From NCBI GenBank assembly GCA_963783305.1, contig CAWAMW010000016.1, positions 448,001-512,000 of the forward strand: DNA of 64,000 nucleotides. Reading direction: 5' to 3'. Under the pieces are notes generated by a model that saw only the letters and a program-made list of their open reading frames with translations, had not been told where the DNA came from and did not search any database. Positions 13,570 through 62,018 of this stretch are shown here, in pieces (within the stretch, counting starts at the first letter, position 1; each line of letters starts with the position of its first letter). Made by a program: the position numbers and the translations under genes. This stretch comes from an uncultured Gemmatimonadales bacterium (GTDB lineage: Bacteria; Gemmatimonadota; Gemmatimonadetes; Longimicrobiales; RSA9).

Positions 13570-13800
13570 ATGGGAACGAAGAACCCCTGGAGCTGGGTGC
13601 CCGCTGGTGTTCTGGCGGCCCTCCTCCTGACGCTGGCCGTGGCCTGGTCTTTCCACGATCGGAGCGCCAGCGCCACGCAATGCGCGGTGCTGTACGCGGC
13701 CGCGGAGACCGCCGTGGACTCCGCCCTCGTGGACGCCGTCGTGATCCCTGGCGCCTGGAAGGGGCCCGGCCTGACCTGCGGCGAGCTGATGCGACGGTAG
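13570..13800 (+). CDS. Small membrane-anchored hypothetical protein with two Cys
   Basis: GGAGG RBS before ATG 13570; one TM helix; GC3-rich codons. Confidence 0.6.
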   Translation: MGTKNPWSWVPAGVLAALLLTLAVAWSFHDRSASATQCAVLYAAAETAVDSALVDAVVIPGAWKGPGLTCGELMRR

Positions 13801-13899: not shown

Positions 13900-16038
13900 A
13901 TGATCCATGACGCCGCCGAGGGCGACCCGGCCGCCGCCGTTCCAGCAGCTCACTCCGGCGACGCGGGCGTTCAGCCGCCGCCGGAGCTCAACCCGCGCCG
14001 GGAGCCGGTCCTGGACTTCATCGAGAAACCCCTCGAGTCCATGACGGCCGGGGACTACGACGTCATCGGGTTCCTCTCCGGGCTGGAAGTGCACCAGCAG
14101 ATCGACACCGCCTCCAAGCTGTTCTGCCGCTGTCCGGCCGGCCGGACCGCCACGTCCGTGGACGCCCGGGCGCTGCGCCACATGCGCCCGACCCTGAGCG
14201 AGCTCGGCGAGTACGACCGTACGGCGCTCATGGAGTTCAAGACGCGCAAGGAGGTGGTGTACCTGCTCGACCGGAGCACCGTCTGCACGTACGAGCTCGA
14301 CGACACGCCCCCTTTCGAGATCGACCCATCCGCCGTGGCCATCGCGCTGGAACTCGCCGCCCTCTGCGACCTGAACCTCGTGGGCGAGCTCCACGTCATG
14401 CGGAAGCAGTACCTGGACGGCTCCATCCCCACCGGGTTCCAGCGTACGGCCATGGTGGGGCTGACGGGCGCGATCCCGTTGCGGGAGCCGGAGCTCGGTG
14501 TCCACCGCGAGCTCCGGATCCGGCAGCTGTCGCTGGAGGAGGACTCGTGCCGGGAGGTCTCCGACGTGGGCCACCGCATTACCTACCGCACCGACCGGCT
14601 CGGAATGCCCCTCACGGAGGTGGTCACCGAGCCGGACCTGCTCACACCGTGGGAGCTCGAGGCCGGCGGTCGATTGGTGGCCGAGCTGGCACGCGCCACG
14701 GGCAAGATCCGGCGCGGGCCCGGCGCCGCGCGGCAGGACGTGAACGTCTCCGTGGCCGGCGGCCGGCGCGTGGAGATCAAGGGCGTGCCCCGCCACCGCG
14801 GGCTCACGCTCCTGGTCCACACCGAAGCCTTCCGCCAGCTGGAGCTGCTGCGCATCCGCGCCGAGCTCGGGCATCGGGGCGTCCGCCACGACGCTCTGGC
14901 CGATCCCGCCGACGGTCTTCCGTGGGAAACCTCCGGCCTGGTGGTGGACGCCGGCTCCACGATTCGCGGCACGAGCTATCGGCCCATTCTGGATGCGCTG
15001 GCCCGCGACGAGACCGTGGTTGCGGTGCGGCTCCCGGGTTTCGCCGGCATGCTGGCCCACCGCACGCAGCCGGGCCTCACTTTCGCACACGAGCTGGCTG
15101 AGCGGGTGCGCGTCATCGCGTGCCCCGTCGTGCGGCCGTTCCTCACCCATTCCGATGAGAGCGACTCCCTCTCCGGCGCCGACTGGGGCGGCCTCCGCGC
15201 CGCGCTCGGTGCGAGCACCGATGACGCCATCGTCCTCGCCTGGGCGCCCCGACCGGACGCCGCCACCGCAGCGCGCGAGATCCTGATCCGCGCTCGGGAG
15301 GCGCTGGCCGGCGTCCCCGCGGAGACCCGGCAGGCATGGCCCGACGGCCGCACCGGATTCGAGCGCCTCCTGCCGGGGCCCGACCGCATGTACCCGGACA
15401 CCGACACGCCGCCGCAGCCCGTACCGGACGCGCTCGTGGCCGAGGTCCTCGCCGCCCTCCCCGAGCGGCCCTGGGACCGGGAGGAGCGCTACGGCACTCT
15501 CGGACTCGATCACGCCACCGCCCGCCACCTCGCCCGGTCGCCGTGGGCCGATCCCTTCGATGCCGTGGGACCTGCCGCCGGCGAGCCCGCCCGACGCCTC
15601 GCGCACGCGCTCTCCAAGCGCGCGCCGTATCACGCGCGCCGCCTCGGCGTGGTGCTGGACCGGGGACCGGACTCCCTCCACGTCCTCGGGCTCGGCGCCC
15701 CCCGGATCGCCCCGCTGGTGCGCGCCCTGGAGGCCGGGGAGATCCTGCCGGGCGCCCTCGAGCCCGCTCTGGACGACCTGGCCCTGCACCCCCGCCGGGG
15801 GACCGACAACGTGCTGGACGCCTACTGCACCCGGCCTGGAGACGACCGGCGCCTCGAGCAGCTGGCGGCCGCGGCAGCGGACGGAGCGGCCGCGATGACT
15901 GGCCGCTCCACCGAGGCGCGGCTGCGCTGGGCCATGGGCGAGGTGATGCGGAGTCTCTGGGGCCGCGTGGACGCCGCGCGGGCCCGGCAGCTTCTGGAAC
16001 GGGCGCTGGAGCAGCGCGAAACGGAGGTGCCCGCGTGA
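13900..16038 (+). CDS. gatE: Glu-tRNA(Gln) amidotransferase subunit E (archaeal type)
   Basis: GLEVHQQ..KLFCRCP, RPTLSELGEYDRTALME, MRKQYLDGSIPTGFQRT, LEEDSCR, DRLGMPLTEVVT, RQDVNVSVAGGRRVEIKGV, a central insertion domain and VPAETR...PGPDRMYPDTD; the SELGE segment and the insertion distinguish GatE from GatB. Confidence 0.9.
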   Translation: MIHDAAEGDPAAAVPAAHSGDAGVQPPPELNPRREPVLDFIEKPLESMTAGDYDVIGFLSGLEVHQQIDTASKLFCRCPAGRTATSVDARALRHMRPTLSELGEYDRTALMEFKTRKEVVYLLDRSTVCTYELDDTPPFEIDPSAVAIALELAALCDLNLVGELHVMRKQYLDGSIPTGFQRTAMVGLTGAIPLREPELGVHRELRIRQLSLEEDSCREVSDVGHRITYRTDRLGMPLTEVVTEPDLLTPWELEAGGRLVAELARATGKIRRGPGAARQDVNVSVAGGRRVEIKGVPRHRGLTLLVHTEAFRQLELLRIRAELGHRGVRHDALADPADGLPWETSGLVVDAGSTIRGTSYRPILDALARDETVVAVRLPGFAGMLAHRTQPGLTFAHELAERVRVIACPVVRPFLTHSDESDSLSGADWGGLRAALGASTDDAIVLAWAPRPDAATAAREILIRAREALAGVPAETRQAWPDGRTGFERLLPGPDRMYPDTDTPPQPVPDALVAEVLAALPERPWDREERYGTLGLDHATARHLARSPWADPFDAVGPAAGEPARRLAHALSKRAPYHARRLGVVLDRGPDSLHVLGLGAPRIAPLVRALEAGEILPGALEPALDDLALHPRRGTDNVLDAYCTRPGDDRRLEQLAAAAADGAAAMTGRSTEARLRWAMGEVMRSLWGRVDAARARQLLERALEQRETEVPA

Positions 16039-17432
16039 GTGCCCCGGCGAAGGAGTCGGATCGCGGCTATCGCGGGCCCGCGCTGGAAGTCATGCGGTCG
16101 CACGGCGTCGGAGTGTGGTGCGAGGTGCGGGCGGAGACCACGCGCGGCGCCTTCGAGGGACTCATCCTGCCCCGCTCGGAGACCAGTGACGAGCTCCACG
16201 TCGTCCTGAAGCTGGGCACCGGCTACAACATAGGGATCCGCTGCGACACCATCACCGGTTTGGAGAAGATCGGCTATCGGGAGGGGCACTACGGCATCCC
16301 CGAGAAGGCTTTCCCGACGAATCCCGGCTATCCGAACGTCAAGCTCCTCGGTACAGGCGGCACCATCGCCTCCCGGCTGGATTACCGCACCGGAGCGGTG
16401 ATCCCGGCGTTCAGCCCGGGCGAGCTCTACGGCTCCGTGCCCGAGCTCGCCGACCTGTGCAACCTGGAGACGGAGAAGGTGTTCGGCGTCTTCAGCGAGA
16501 ACATGGGCCCCGAGCAGTACCTGGTCCTCGCCGAGAAGGTGGGGGAGGCCATCCGGGAAGGATACGATGGGATCGTGATCGGCCACGGCACGGACACCAT
16601 GCACCACACCGCCGCCGCCCTCAGCTTCATGGTGCAGCGGCCGCCGGTACCGGTGGTCCTGGTGGGGAGCCAGCGCTCCTCGGATCGGCCGTCCTCCGAT
16701 GCCGCCCGCAACCTCATCGCCGCCACCCGCGCCGCCGGCCACGGCACCATCGCCGAGGTCATGGTCTGCATGTTCGGCCCCACGTCCGACCTCTACAACC
16801 TCCTCCATCGCGGCACCCGCGTCCGGAAGATGCACAGCTCCGTGCGCAGCACCTTCCGCACCCTCGGGGACATCCCGCTCGCGCGCGTGCACGAGGGGGA
16901 GGTCGTGCCGATCAAAGACGACTGGCGACCCCGACGCGACGACCGCAATGTCGAGATCCACGCCGTCTTCGATCCCCGGGTCACCCTCGCCTACTACTAC
17001 CCGGGGATGCAGCCCGACGTCATCGACTCGCTCGTCGATGCAGGCTATCACGGCATCGTCATTGCCGGCACCGGCCTCGGTCACGTGAACCGCGCCATCT
17101 ATCCCGCACTCGAGCGCGCCCGCGACGCCGGCGTGCAGGTGTACATGACGCTCCAGACGCTCTGGGGCTTCGTCCAGATGCACGTCTACGAGACCGGCCG
17201 CGAGATCCTCGAGCTCGGTGTCGTCCCCCTCGCCAATATGCTCCCCGAGGTCGCCTACATAAAGCTCGGGTGGGCGCTCGGCATGCACCCGAACGACCCC
17301 GTGGCCGCCCGCTCCCTGATGACCACCCCCATCGCCGGCGAGATCACCGAGCGCGAGCCCCACGACGGCTACCTCGTTCTGCAGGGCGGCGTCCCCGAGG
17401 TGGAGGAATTCCTCAAGAAGGTGTGGCGGTAA
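16035..17432 (+). CDS. gatD: Glu-tRNA(Gln) amidotransferase subunit D (asparaginase-like glutaminase)
   Basis: GTGA overlap with gatE; GatD-specific N-domain GLILPRSE..LKLGTGYNIGI; TGGTIASRLDYRTGAV, HGTDT, GSQRSSDRPSSD, RKMHS. Confidence 0.92.
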   Translation: MSAPAKESDRGYRGPALEVMRSHGVGVWCEVRAETTRGAFEGLILPRSETSDELHVVLKLGTGYNIGIRCDTITGLEKIGYREGHYGIPEKAFPTNPGYPNVKLLGTGGTIASRLDYRTGAVIPAFSPGELYGSVPELADLCNLETEKVFGVFSENMGPEQYLVLAEKVGEAIREGYDGIVIGHGTDTMHHTAAALSFMVQRPPVPVVLVGSQRSSDRPSSDAARNLIAATRAAGHGTIAEVMVCMFGPTSDLYNLLHRGTRVRKMHSSVRSTFRTLGDIPLARVHEGEVVPIKDDWRPRRDDRNVEIHAVFDPRVTLAYYYPGMQPDVIDSLVDAGYHGIVIAGTGLGHVNRAIYPALERARDAGVQVYMTLQTLWGFVQMHVYETGREILELGVVPLANMLPEVAYIKLGWALGMHPNDPVAARSLMTTPIAGEITEREPHDGYLVLQGGVPEVEEFLKKVWR

Positions 17433-17501
17433 GCGGGAGCGAGGCGACGTCAAAAAACTCCGATCATCCGGGTCGGTAGCCCTCGAGACGAACAGCAGGA
17501 T

Positions 17502-17598
17502 CGAAGGAACGAAGAAACGAAGGAACGAAGAAACGAAGACAGCGAAAAAGGCTGGGCTGATCCGGCGACGTTGGGACTCCGGGAACTTCGTTCCTTTG
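17502..17598. repeat. 8-bp tandem repeat CGAAG(G/A)AA x5 plus an inverted copy
   Basis: Units at 17502-17541; near-perfect reverse complement CTTCGTTCCTTTG at 17586-17598. Confidence 0.8.
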
Positions 17599-17799: not shown

Positions 17800-17862
17800 G
17801 CGGCGTCACGCGTACCGACAGCCAGAGCGATCCGGGCCCCGGCCCACACCCGAAGGATGATT

Positions 17863-19107
17863 GTGGCGAAGTTCCCTCCCGTACACGAGCAGATGGATGC
17901 GATCCGGCACGGCGCGCTGGAGATCGTGCCGGAGGACGAGCTGGTCCGGAAGCTGGAGCGAAGTCGGGATACCGGGACCCCGCTCGTCGTGAAGCAGGGC
18001 TTCGACCCGACGCGGCCGGACCTGCACATCGGACACGCCGTGAGCATCCGAAAGCTGCGGACCTTCCAGGAGCTGGGCCACAGCGTCGTCTTCGTGGTGG
18101 GGGACTATACCGCCCGCGTCGGCGACCCCAGCGGCCGGAGCGAGACGCGTCCGGCGCTGTCGCCGGAGGAGATCGAGGCCAACGCCCGTACCTACGCCAC
18201 ACAGGTCGGGAGCATCCTGGATGTGGACCGGGTCCGGGTCGAGTTCAACTCGAAGTGGCTGGCGCCGCTCAACCTGGCCGATATCCTGGAGCTGACCGGC
18301 TCCTACACCGTCGCCCGGATGCTCGAGCGCGACGATTTCGAGAAGCGCTACGGCGGAGGGCAGCCGATCTCCATCATGGAGTTCATGTACCCCCTCATGC
18401 AGGCCTACGACTCCGTGGCCCTCGGCGCCGACGTGGAGCTGGGCGGGAGCGACCAGAAGTTCAACCTGCTCATCGCCCGCACCATTCAGGAGCGCTACAG
18501 GCAGGAGCCGCAGGTGTGCCTGATCATGCCGCTGCTGCGGGGCACCGACGGCGAGCAGAAGATGTCGAAGTCCTACGACAACTACATCGGCCTCGCCGAG
18601 CCCCCCGAGGAGATCTACGGGAAGACCATGTCCATCCCCGACGACCTGCTGGAGGAGTGGTACACGCTGGCCAGCGGCCTCGAGGCCGATGCGTTGCAAG
18701 AGGCGCTCGCGAGCGCCGGGCCCGACCCGTACGAAGCGAAGCGGCGGCTGGCCGGACTGGTCACGCGGACCTATCACGGCGCCGAAGGCGAGGCGGCGGG
18801 CCGCGAGCACTTCGACACCGTGTTCCGTAAGAAGGAGGAGCCGGAGGAGGTGCCCGAGGTGGCCGTTCGGCTCGATCACCCCGACGTCCGCTACGAGGAC
18901 GGCACGGTGTGGGTCGCGGGCCTCCTCGTGGTCGCGGGGCTCGCCGCGTCGAAGAGCGAGGCGATTCGCCTGATCGAGCAGGGCGCCATCGCCGTCGACG
19001 GTGAGATCATCCACGACAGGAGCGCCACCACCCGCGCCGCCACAGATCTCCGGCCGGTGCTCCGTCGCGGGAAGAGGCGCTTCGCCCGGATACGGTTCGT
19101 CGCGTGA
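17863..19107 (+). CDS. tyrS: Tyrosine--tRNA ligase
   Basis: GFDPTRPDLHIGH, YPLMQAYDS, GGSDQKFN, KMSKS and a C-terminal S4 domain; start GTG 17863 or ATG 17857. Confidence 0.96.
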   Translation: MAKFPPVHEQMDAIRHGALEIVPEDELVRKLERSRDTGTPLVVKQGFDPTRPDLHIGHAVSIRKLRTFQELGHSVVFVVGDYTARVGDPSGRSETRPALSPEEIEANARTYATQVGSILDVDRVRVEFNSKWLAPLNLADILELTGSYTVARMLERDDFEKRYGGGQPISIMEFMYPLMQAYDSVALGADVELGGSDQKFNLLIARTIQERYRQEPQVCLIMPLLRGTDGEQKMSKSYDNYIGLAEPPEEIYGKTMSIPDDLLEEWYTLASGLEADALQEALASAGPDPYEAKRRLAGLVTRTYHGAEGEAAGREHFDTVFRKKEEPEEVPEVAVRLDHPDVRYEDGTVWVAGLLVVAGLAASKSEAIRLIEQGAIAVDGEIIHDRSATTRAATDLRPVLRRGKRRFARIRFVA

Positions 19108-60614: not shown

Positions 60615-62018
60615 CTAGTAGGTAGCCAGGTAGCGATCGATCTCCCACTCGTGGACCTGGGCGATGTAGTCCGCCCACTCCTGCTCCTTCGCGGCCACGA
60701 AGTGCTCGAACACGTGCTTGCCGAGCGTGTTCTTCATCAGCTCGCTCTTCTGAAAGACCTGAATCGCCTCCCCGAGGTCCTTCGGCAGCTCCTGGATCTT
60801 GTAGCGCCGCCGCTCCCGGACCGTCAGCTCGAAAATGTTCTTGTCCACCGGGTCCGGCGGATCGATCTCGTTCCGGATCCCGTCGAGGCCGGCCGCGAGC
60901 TGCACCGCCAGCGCCAGGTACGGGTTGGCGGCAGGGTCCGGGATCCGGAGCTCGATCCGTGTGCCGTTTCCACGACGCGCGGGGATCCGGACCATCGGGG
61001 ACCGGTTGTGATGCGACCACGCCACGTTCGTCGGCGCCTCGTACCCCGGCACCAGCCGCTTGAAGCTGTTGACCAGCGGGTTCGTCACCACGCAGAACGA
61101 CCGAGCGTGCTTCAGCAGCCCGCCCACGTAGTGCCGCATCACCTGCGACAGCCCATCCGCGTCGCTCTCGTCGTAAAACGCGGCTTTCCCGTCCTTGAAC
61201 AGCGACTGGTGCGTGTGCATCCCGGACCCGTTCTGGCCGAAAATGGGCTTCGGCATGAACGTGGCATGCAGGCCGTGCCGGACCGCCATGTTCTTGACCA
61301 CGAACTTGAACGTCGACAGATGGTCCGCCGTGGTCAGCGCGTCCTCGTACTTGAAGTCGATCTCGTGCTGACCCTGCGCCACCTCGTGGTGCGCCGCCTC
61401 CACCTCGAAGCCCATGGCGCTCAGCATGTTCACGATATCACGCCGCGCCACCTCCCCGAGGTCCACCGGGCCCAGGTCGAAGTAACCGCCCGCGTCATGT
61501 GTGAGGCGCGTCGGCGCCCCCTCCTCCGTCCGATGGAAGAGGAAGAACTCGGCCTCCACTCCCGCCATCATCTCGTACCCCATCTCCGCGGCGTCCGCGA
61601 TCACTCGCTTCAGCACGTTCCGCGGATCGCCGAGAAACGGCTTCTCGTCGGCCGTGAACACATCGCAGATCAGACGGCCCACGCGGTTGTCCTCGTCCCC
61701 CCACGGGTACACCGCGAACGTGTCGAAGTCCGGCCTCAGGATCATGTCCGATTCTTCGATCCGCACGAACCCCTCGATCGACGATCCATCGAACATGATG
61801 TCCCCGTCCAGCGCCTTCACGAACTGGCTCTCCGGCAGCTCCACATTCTTGATCTGCCCCGTGATGTCCGTAAACTGAAGACGCAGGAACCGCACGTTCG
61901 ACCGCTCCAGCATTCCCAGCACGTCCTTCTTCGACGCTCCCCGCGTACGGCGCGTCTCCGCGTCCGGCATGGGACGCACCTTGTGATCGGGGACCAGGTC
62001 CTTCTTGACTCGGTTCAT
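60615..62018 (-). CDS. glnA: Type I glutamine synthetase
   Basis: FDGSSIEGF, EAEFF, HHEVA.GQHEI, ATFMPKP, NGSGMH, RLVPGYEAP, RIELR; GGAG RBS before ATG 62018. Confidence 0.97.
   Translation of the reverse strand: MNRVKKDLVPDHKVRPMPDAETRRTRGASKKDVLGMLERSNVRFLRLQFTDITGQIKNVELPESQFVKALDGDIMFDGSSIEGFVRIEESDMILRPDFDTFAVYPWGDEDNRVGRLICDVFTADEKPFLGDPRNVLKRVIADAAEMGYEMMAGVEAEFFLFHRTEEGAPTRLTHDAGGYFDLGPVDLGEVARRDIVNMLSAMGFEVEAAHHEVAQGQHEIDFKYEDALTTADHLSTFKFVVKNMAVRHGLHATFMPKPIFGQNGSGMHTHQSLFKDGKAAFYDESDADGLSQVMRHYVGGLLKHARSFCVVTNPLVNSFKRLVPGYEAPTNVAWSHHNRSPMVRIPARRGNGTRIELRIPDPAANPYLALAVQLAAGLDGIRNEIDPPDPVDKNIFELTVRERRRYKIQELPKDLGEAIQVFQKSELMKNTLGKHVFEHFVAAKEQEWADYIAQVHEWEIDRYLATY

Follow-up and report, generated by a model that had tools for sequence, protein, structure and literature searches.

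A gatDE operon in an uncultured Gemmatimonadales bacterium belongs to a bacterial amidotransferase clade associated with glutaminyl-tRNA synthetase

GatDE is the amidotransferase of archaea, whose hosts lack glutaminyl-tRNA synthetase (GlnRS) and use it as their sole route to Gln-tRNA(Gln). It is termed archaeal-only or archaeal-specific in passages of papers from 2008, 2009, 2010 and 2022 (PMC2330236, PMC2811023, PMC2943598 and PMC9499178), and one argument about the last universal common ancestor, as set out in part of PMC9499178, rests on that restriction. A 2014 survey states, in the passage on this point, that no bacterium was known with both routes to Gln-tRNA(Gln) (PMC4206432). Here we describe gatE and gatD in a 64,000-nucleotide stretch of DNA, the window, from an uncultured Gemmatimonadales bacterium (assembly GCA_963783305.1, contig CAWAMW010000016.1, positions 448,001 to 512,000). 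By sequence and fold the pair is an intact GatDE, yet it stands outside the archaeal context of A1-U72 tRNA, no GlnRS and an archaeal glutamyl-tRNA synthetase (GluRS).

The gatE gene (13900-16038, forward strand) encodes 712 amino acids from an ATG start, without an internal stop. Its product comprises a cradle (kinase/amidotransferase) domain, an insertion resembling aspartyl-tRNA synthetase (AspRS), a helical domain and a YqeY-like tail. In profile searches it scores 382 bits on TIGR00134 (cut-off 319.55) and 439.5 bits on NF003107, slightly below the cut-off of 456. The best GatB model gives 116 bits, far below its cut-off of 338. A preliminary description of the locus, made from the letters alone, had read the gene as a full-length gatE rather than a gatB; these hidden Markov model (HMM) scores bear it out, and all motifs that it named in GatE and GatD are present. 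The AlphaFold model has a predicted local distance difference test (pLDDT) score of 96, with the tRNA-binding architecture complete and confidently modelled. The closest solved relatives, by sequence and predicted fold, are the archaeal structures 1ZQ1 (fold E value 1e-45) and 2D6F (1e-42), with GatB at most 8e-23; a weak fold match to AspRS is consistent with the insertion domain. His65, Glu213 and Glu240 (codons at 14092, 14536 and 14617, within 14092-14619, forward) align with His15, Glu157 and Glu184 of M. thermautotrophicus GatE (2D6F), identified as Mg ligands in a passage of PMC2330236. These positions are invariant across 148 aligned rows.

The gatD gene (16035-17432, forward strand) encodes 465 amino acids from a GTG start, also without an internal stop. 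Its product joins GatD_N to an asparaginase-type amidohydrolase and scores 494 bits on TIGR02153 (cut-off 324) and 481 on NF003217 (cut-off 310). Pfam finds GatD_N, and Thr110, Thr186, Asp187 and Lys265 are intact, in line with the GatD N-domain and glutaminase residues described earlier. Catalytic residues of both proteins are invariant in the alignments, row L051 being left out of the one for GatD. A Shine-Dalgarno-like GGAGGT, 6 nucleotides ahead of the GTG, and the previously noted GTGA stop/start overlap (16035-16038) couple gatE to gatD (together 16023-16038, forward). No sigma-70-like promoter was found at the locus.

The tRNA that this enzyme faces is of the bacterial type. All three tRNA(Gln) genes of the host have U1-A72, as does its tRNA(Asn). 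A survey gave 204 pattern matches in 50 genomes; the 40 tRNA-like sequences picked from the 150 listed, representing 21 other carrier genomes, all have U1-A72 as well, making 43/43 with the host. The A1-U72 pair of archaeal GatDE substrates was thus found neither in the host nor in the other carriers checked. A73 is present in all three host tRNA(Gln) and in 6 of the 40 others; G73 appears as a bacterial Gln identity element in a list within PMC9976931.

GatE has changed on the side that meets this tRNA. Bacterial GatB reads U1-A72 via a 3-10 turn, according to part of PMC2811023. The corresponding acceptor-stem loop of our GatE (residues 268-280, which with Pro297 span 14701-14790, forward) has GatE length and lacks that turn, and an Ile conserved in 92% of 50 archaeal rows is replaced by a small residue. 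Pro297 replaces an archaeal-invariant Gln, Gln240 of 2D6F: this position is Gln in 98-100% of archaea, Asgard included, and Pro, Ser or Asp in 28 bacterial rows. We take 2D6F Gln240 to contact the first base pair; a search for Gln240 gave nothing relevant. In the GatE-specific insertion domain (14932-15309, forward), the archaeal His, Glu, Tyr and Gly positions are lost, and bacteria conserve their own Arg402, Cys408, Pro413, Trp448, Asp453 and Glu460. This domain is the proposed pocket for non-discriminating (ND) GluRS in archaea and bars ND-AspRS binding, as described in a section of PMC2943598. The tail (15820-16017, forward) is present and evolving fast. The preliminary description had called it YqeY-like: GatE HMM alignments extend across it and the structural model is confident there, but Pfam GatB_Yqey gives no match. 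Mean pairwise identity in bacteria versus archaea is 0.60 versus 0.52 for the cradle, 0.21 versus 0.26 for the helical domain and 0.19 versus 0.31 for the tail. Judged from these alignments, the catalytic chemistry of GatE is kept and its tRNA- and partner-facing surfaces are altered. Altered tRNA recognition, raised in the preliminary description, is likely given the uniform U1-A72 and the changes at acceptor-side residues conserved in archaea.

Both genes behave as native genes. GC content at third codon positions is 0.91 for gatE and gatD alike, against 0.87-0.94 for nine host genes, and codon use matches the host, as had been noted. Against three relatives, the ratio of nonsynonymous to synonymous substitution rates (dN/dS) is 0.23-0.29 for gatE (cradle 0.11-0.15; helical domain and tail 0.35-0.51) and 0.13-0.15 for gatD. 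Both genes, tail included, are under purifying selection. Decay of the genes to a relic, or misassembly of archaeal DNA into a chimera, would fit the patchy distribution of gatE (12/61 relatives) and the frame breaks in a few relatives (G014, G164, G319). That explanation is already largely refuted, and we regard it as extremely improbable: dN/dS is far below 1, codons are host-like, gatE was found in 6/6 genus-mates searched, and the closest homologues are bacterial (62-85% identity, the relatives named Gemmatimonadota). The window also sits in the interior of a bacterial contig of 803 kb, from a genome 96% complete, and one public contig, possibly from the source sample, runs from the gene preceding gatE into gatE itself. 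The whole stretch is not spanned by the public contigs of run X1, whose coverage of 14604-16004 is thin; a hole of this kind is no proof. Run X2 (a small share) gave short matching pieces only. A chimera is very unlikely.

Many bacteria carry this GatDE. Two motifs of the clade, scanned against a collection of genomes at species level, matched at least 599 stretches, of which 596 were confirmed. Locus statistics rest on the best 80 of these at least 596 stretches, a sample therefore biased towards the query. Of these 80 loci, 78 are labelled Bacteria and 2 are unlabelled, with 11 named phyla; gatD adjoins gatE in 66, is separated by an insert in 6 and is missing from the locus in the other 8, most of which lie at contig ends. 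GatE was found in 19/301 Gemmatimonadota genomes and in 32/151 genomes from the class of an Ignavibacteriales genome (the Ignavibacteria-level sample). One clade protein, P0160 (943 amino acids), resembles GatE in its N-terminal part and the end of GatD at its C-terminus, and may reflect a fusion or a frameshift artefact. A phage collection yielded no GatE and a plasmid collection gave a single archaeal megaplasmid match, so no mobile carrier was found. The preliminary description had treated the locus as exceptional, which does not hold: hundreds of bacterial genomes match, and many clade proteins are already named GatE by NCBI and JGI. The clade is large, annotated in databases and apparently uncharacterised, and this locus is one of its ordinary members. 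No characterisation of bacterial GatDE was found in the literature searched, which left out most subscription journals, so an earlier mention is possible.

Occurrence of the clade is tied to GlnRS. In 50 carriers searched from the best 80 loci, glnS was found in 47, asnS in 46 (over cut-off) and gatB in 27. For comparison, GlnRS is present in about 46% of 547 genera in Table 2 of PMC4206432. Within Gemmatimonadota, glnS occurs in 16/19 GatE carriers versus 138/282 other genomes, in family f4 in 9/12 versus 16/113, and in the Ignavibacteria-level sample in 31/32 versus 46/119. The trend for gatB is opposite, with 7/19 carriers versus 214/282 others in Gemmatimonadota and 2/12 versus 108/113 in family f4. 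Background tallies take in four genomes flagged unpublished (G038, G162, G248, G270), none a GatE carrier. Fisher p values for these comparisons overstate the association, since related genomes are not independent and absence is uncertain in assembled genomes. GatDE as the sole Gln-tRNA route was considered for the Gemmatimonadota carriers without glnS and rejected for two of the three, G173 and G266, which have glnS pieces cut by contig ends; in the third, G240 (95% complete), no glnS was found. Outside this set, G103 (a single chromosome) and G073 have GatE and GatB, and GlnRS was not found.

Glu/Gln genes recur as neighbours. glnS lies within 8 kb in 7/80 loci. In four of these, from related Gemmatimonadota (L041, L042, L044, L045), glnS and the gatD stop share four bases and gltX is divergent; the remaining three are arranged differently. 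The operon-coupled GlnRSs of L041, L044 and L045 are without a YqeY tail, and the host GlnRS (G000:C2:560917-563349, L001) carries a YqeY tail resembling that of Deinococcus and a long linker rich in Gly. A GatDE-linked GlnRS subtype was considered and rejected: GlnRSs of carriers and non-carriers mix in the tree, and 66/66 keep the canonical Cys and Tyr-Asp positions. A gene of the glutamine synthetase (GS) family flanks gatDE in 4/80 loci, and aspS lies nearby in 1/80. In 6/8 further Gemmatimonadota regions, chosen from the carriers of the phylum, a divergent GS-family gene directly follows gatD. Seven loci have this arrangement (L046, L263, L265, L266, L267, L269, L270); the protein of about 466 amino acids is about 28% identical to GlnA, falls below all NCBIfam cut-offs and is absent from the host genome.

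Phylogeny with archaeal sequences sets bacterial GatE apart and groups it with Asgard GatE. Trees were built with FastTree (188 rows) and IQ-TREE (48 rows), after leaving out sequences under 560-570 amino acids and five frameshift-like proteins. Bacterial GatE forms a single branch (support 1.0 and 100, respectively). It joins sequences of clusters named Heimdall-, Loki-, Thor-, Odin- and Hodarchaeales (5/10 looked up carry names), and the bacteria plus Asgard-like rows split from other archaea with a Shimodaira-Hasegawa-like approximate likelihood ratio (SH-aLRT) of 99. The sister of the bacterial clade is a Heimdall-cluster sequence (SH-aLRT 94), though a tree keeping the Asgard-like rows together survives the approximately unbiased (AU) test (p = 0.21). 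The root is a single GatB or the other archaea, composition is uneven, and 9/10 deep bacterial-clade rows are without a taxon name. The motif MRKQYLDGSIPTGFQRT (14398-14448, forward) has Tyr and Ile-Pro where archaea have Val and Asn-Thr; its Tyr171 occurs in 96% of the 28 rows from the bacterial clade, in all 10 Asgard-like rows and in none of 50 other archaeal rows. Asgard GatE (Heimdallarchaeota, Lokiarchaeum ossiferum, Thor-, Odin- and Hodarchaeales) shares Tyr131, Tyr171, Leu172 and Asp500 with the bacterial clade but, unlike it, keeps Gln240 and the archaeal insertion motif. The motif had been taken to mark a distinct clade; the clade is distinct, but the motif is an ordinary signature of all its bacterial members and partly shared with Asgard GatE. 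An old inter-domain transfer kept under selection had also been proposed. Purifying selection and a probable Asgard-related archaeal origin agree with it, and transfer from such a donor is the simplest reading, though not proven; nesting within Asgard is not proven either.

The host genome (G000) has other means of making Gln-tRNA. It encodes GlnRS, GatA and GatB (on the contig of gatDE, 210 kb away), AsnRS, AspRS, two full-length bacterial-type GluRSs and two glutamine synthetases. The class Ic synthetase genes found are those for GlnRS and the two GluRSs; an archaeal-type ND-GluRS partner is not among them. With GlnRS and GatCAB present, GatDE is not the only Gln-tRNA route in this bacterium, and the idea that it makes up for an absent route is not supported; the clade occurs almost only with GlnRS. 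No AsnA was found in G000, and AsnB gave only a weak 74-position domain match. GatCAB is therefore probably kept for tRNA-dependent Asn synthesis, and it fits the profile for that role given in part of PMC4206432.

A source of Glu-tRNA(Gln) in the host is plausible from its GluRS sequences. GluRS1 has Arg at the Thermus-358 position, as do five relatives without GlnRS. The main GluRS of those five must be non-discriminating, so the Arg in GluRS1 does not show discrimination, and the Arg358 signature is non-diagnostic in this phylum. GluRS2 (G000:C7:563097-564539, L003) shares 40% identity with GluRS1. It carries His at Thermus-358 and RGSGH instead of RGDDH, and is a candidate for an enzyme that is repurposed or specific for tRNA(Gln).

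From these results we infer what GatDE would do, on which substrate and in what physiological role. It would be active as an amidotransferase of the GatD2E2 type, belonging to an old clade of bacterial enzymes with kinship to Asgard GatE. Using ATP, GatE would phosphorylate the gamma-carboxyl of Glu carried by tRNA(Gln), and GatD would free ammonia from Gln or Asn for the amidation. First-base-pair reading would have been retuned or lost, allowing the enzyme to accept U1-A72 tRNA. The enzyme would act alongside GlnRS, not in its place, converting Glu-tRNA(Gln) made by a still non-discriminating GluRS and thereby removing a mistranslation risk; Asn as donor would give a Gln-tRNA route independent of free Gln. 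Such a retuned Glu-tRNA(Gln) amidotransferase, supplied by ND-GluRS and working in parallel with GlnRS, is the explanation we favour, with about even confidence. Its supports are the invariant catalytic residues with low dN/dS, the recurrence of Glu/Gln genes (glnS, gltX, GS family) as neighbours, the depletion of GatB where GatE is present, and the retained insertion domain, in view of the bar to ND-AspRS reported in that section of PMC2943598. Several points weigh against it. Catalysis by the clade is predicted from sequence rather than from biochemistry, and the tail, the D-loop reader, is less conserved than in archaea. The function is dispensable, as 64/282 GatE-negative genomes have GlnRS and no amidotransferase was found in them, and redundancy would leave the near-absence of GatE from GlnRS-less genomes unexplained. 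The host carries its two glutamine synthetase genes, and, given the kinship among genomes, the Fisher p values overstate the association.

GlnRS, the sole bacterial protein of the archaeal-GluRS type, could instead be the functional partner, docking in the GatE insertion pocket like archaeal ND-GluRS; we consider this unlikely. In the controls, glnS and anticodon-domain models do match archaeal GluRS, and the insertion surface is remodelled yet conserved while the tail is relaxed. Near-obligate co-occurrence in two separate groups, where two of the three Gemmatimonadota misses are contig-end cuts, the high frequency of GlnRS in carriers across phyla and the four-base gatD-glnS overlaps also favour a partnership. 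GlnRS would then supply the tRNA(Gln) specificity lost by GatE or pass on mischarged Glu, roles that we likewise doubt. The resulting complex, an Asgard-derived GatDE rewired to GlnRS by analogy with the archaeal ND-GluRS:GatDE transamidosome, is an unlikely one by the same measure. The mingling of GlnRSs from genomes with and without GatE, with canonical residues kept throughout, tells against such a partnership, as do G103 and G073; the four coupled loci are closely related, and a shared lifestyle could account for the link, AsnRS being almost as frequent in carriers. Co-folding of GatE residues 51-505 with the host GlnRS core (score 0.00, mark 0.32) is evidence for neither side.

Other substrates would explain parts of the pattern. 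GatDE might have been recruited to nitrogen metabolism, there amidating a glutamyl or carboxyl acceptor other than tRNA, for instance with the divergent GS-family enzyme encoded directly after gatD in seven loci, and the cradle is indeed more conserved in bacteria than in archaea, the helical domain and tail less. Still, the full tRNA-binding architecture is kept, the tail is under purifying selection, the GS-like gene is restricted by lineage and missing at the host locus, and the glnS and gltX links point to tRNA(Gln); we think this quite unlikely. The anti-correlation of GatE with GatB, together with the U1-A72 of tRNA(Asn), would also suit amidation of Asp-tRNA(Asn), with GatDE replacing GatCAB in tRNA-dependent Asn supply. 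Four carriers from other phyla (G085, G091, G093, G101) have GatE, with no GatB, AsnB or AsnA found. Such a gap is tolerated, however, as 4/20 control genomes are without GatE, GatB and AsnB together. All 12 GatB-less Gemmatimonadota carriers have an AsnB-family gene, although not all members of that family are asparagine synthetases, and the two carriers without AsnB (G000, G006) keep GatCAB. The neighbours are Gln genes rather than aspS, the insertion domain bars ND-AspRS in archaea on the partial account cited above, and an AspRS anticodon-domain signature fails to separate the genome groups. Asp-tRNA(Asn) as the substrate is, in our view, quite improbable.

Outside the operon, tyrS (17857-19107, forward; TIGR00234) follows gatD after a 424-bp gap. 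The adjacency noted in the preliminary description is real, but the linkage is unconserved (1/80 other loci) and tyrS is a neighbour outside the system. Between the two genes lies a purine-rich 8/16-bp tandem repeat (17497-17538; 5.2 copies of 8 bp). Directly upstream of gatE is a 76-amino-acid open reading frame (13570-13800, forward) with a hydrophobic N-terminal stretch and no Pfam or NCBIfam match. A glutamine synthetase gene lies at 60630-61631 (reverse strand) of the window, 43 kb from gatD. Elsewhere in the host genome are a 19-tRNA array within 2.5 kb (G000:C2:112817-115285), whose tRNA(Gln)CUG has the same sequence as the copy that follows gltX on C7, and a tRNA(Sec) gene (G000:C7:484252-484349).

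The value of these observations lies in the clade and its GlnRS link, not in a single locus, and the controlled GlnRS count is the new element. The archaea-only statement is contradicted by a GatDE clade that is conserved in bacteria, meets U1-A72 tRNA and is statistically tied to GlnRS. This clade offers a direct test of the statement on both routes in one bacterium, as worded in that passage of PMC4206432, and a natural experiment in how an amidotransferase shifts its first-base-pair specificity. A GlnRS-GatDE complex, if true, would be an undescribed coupling of direct and indirect Gln routes in hundreds of bacterial species.

Compared with known systems, the host pair is closest to archaeal GatDE (M. 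thermautotrophicus 2D6F with tRNA(Gln); Pyrococcus abyssi 1ZQ1). It shares both subunits, the domain order including the insertion domain, the metal ligands, the Thr/Thr-Asp-Lys residues and the short acceptor loop without a 3-10 turn. It differs in gene order, gatE then gatD with an overlap, and in setting, a bacterium with GlnRS, GatCAB and U1-A72 tRNA(Gln). Bacterial GatE differs from archaeal GatE in having Pro, Ser or Asp for Gln240, small residues for the loop Thr-Ile, a replaced insertion-domain motif and a relaxed tail. Type I L-asparaginase is a more distant relative: GatD scores 368 on TIGR00519, above its cut-off, but it scores higher on GatD models, has GatD_N and is encoded next to gatE in most loci. 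Bacterial GatCAB carries out the same chemistry, and GatB is a paralogue of GatE. However, GatCAB pairs it with an amidase-type GatA where GatDE has an asparaginase-type GatD, is without the insertion domain and has the 3-10 turn described in part of PMC2811023. The gatE product has the insertion, lacks the turn and is paired with GatD rather than with GatA and GatC.

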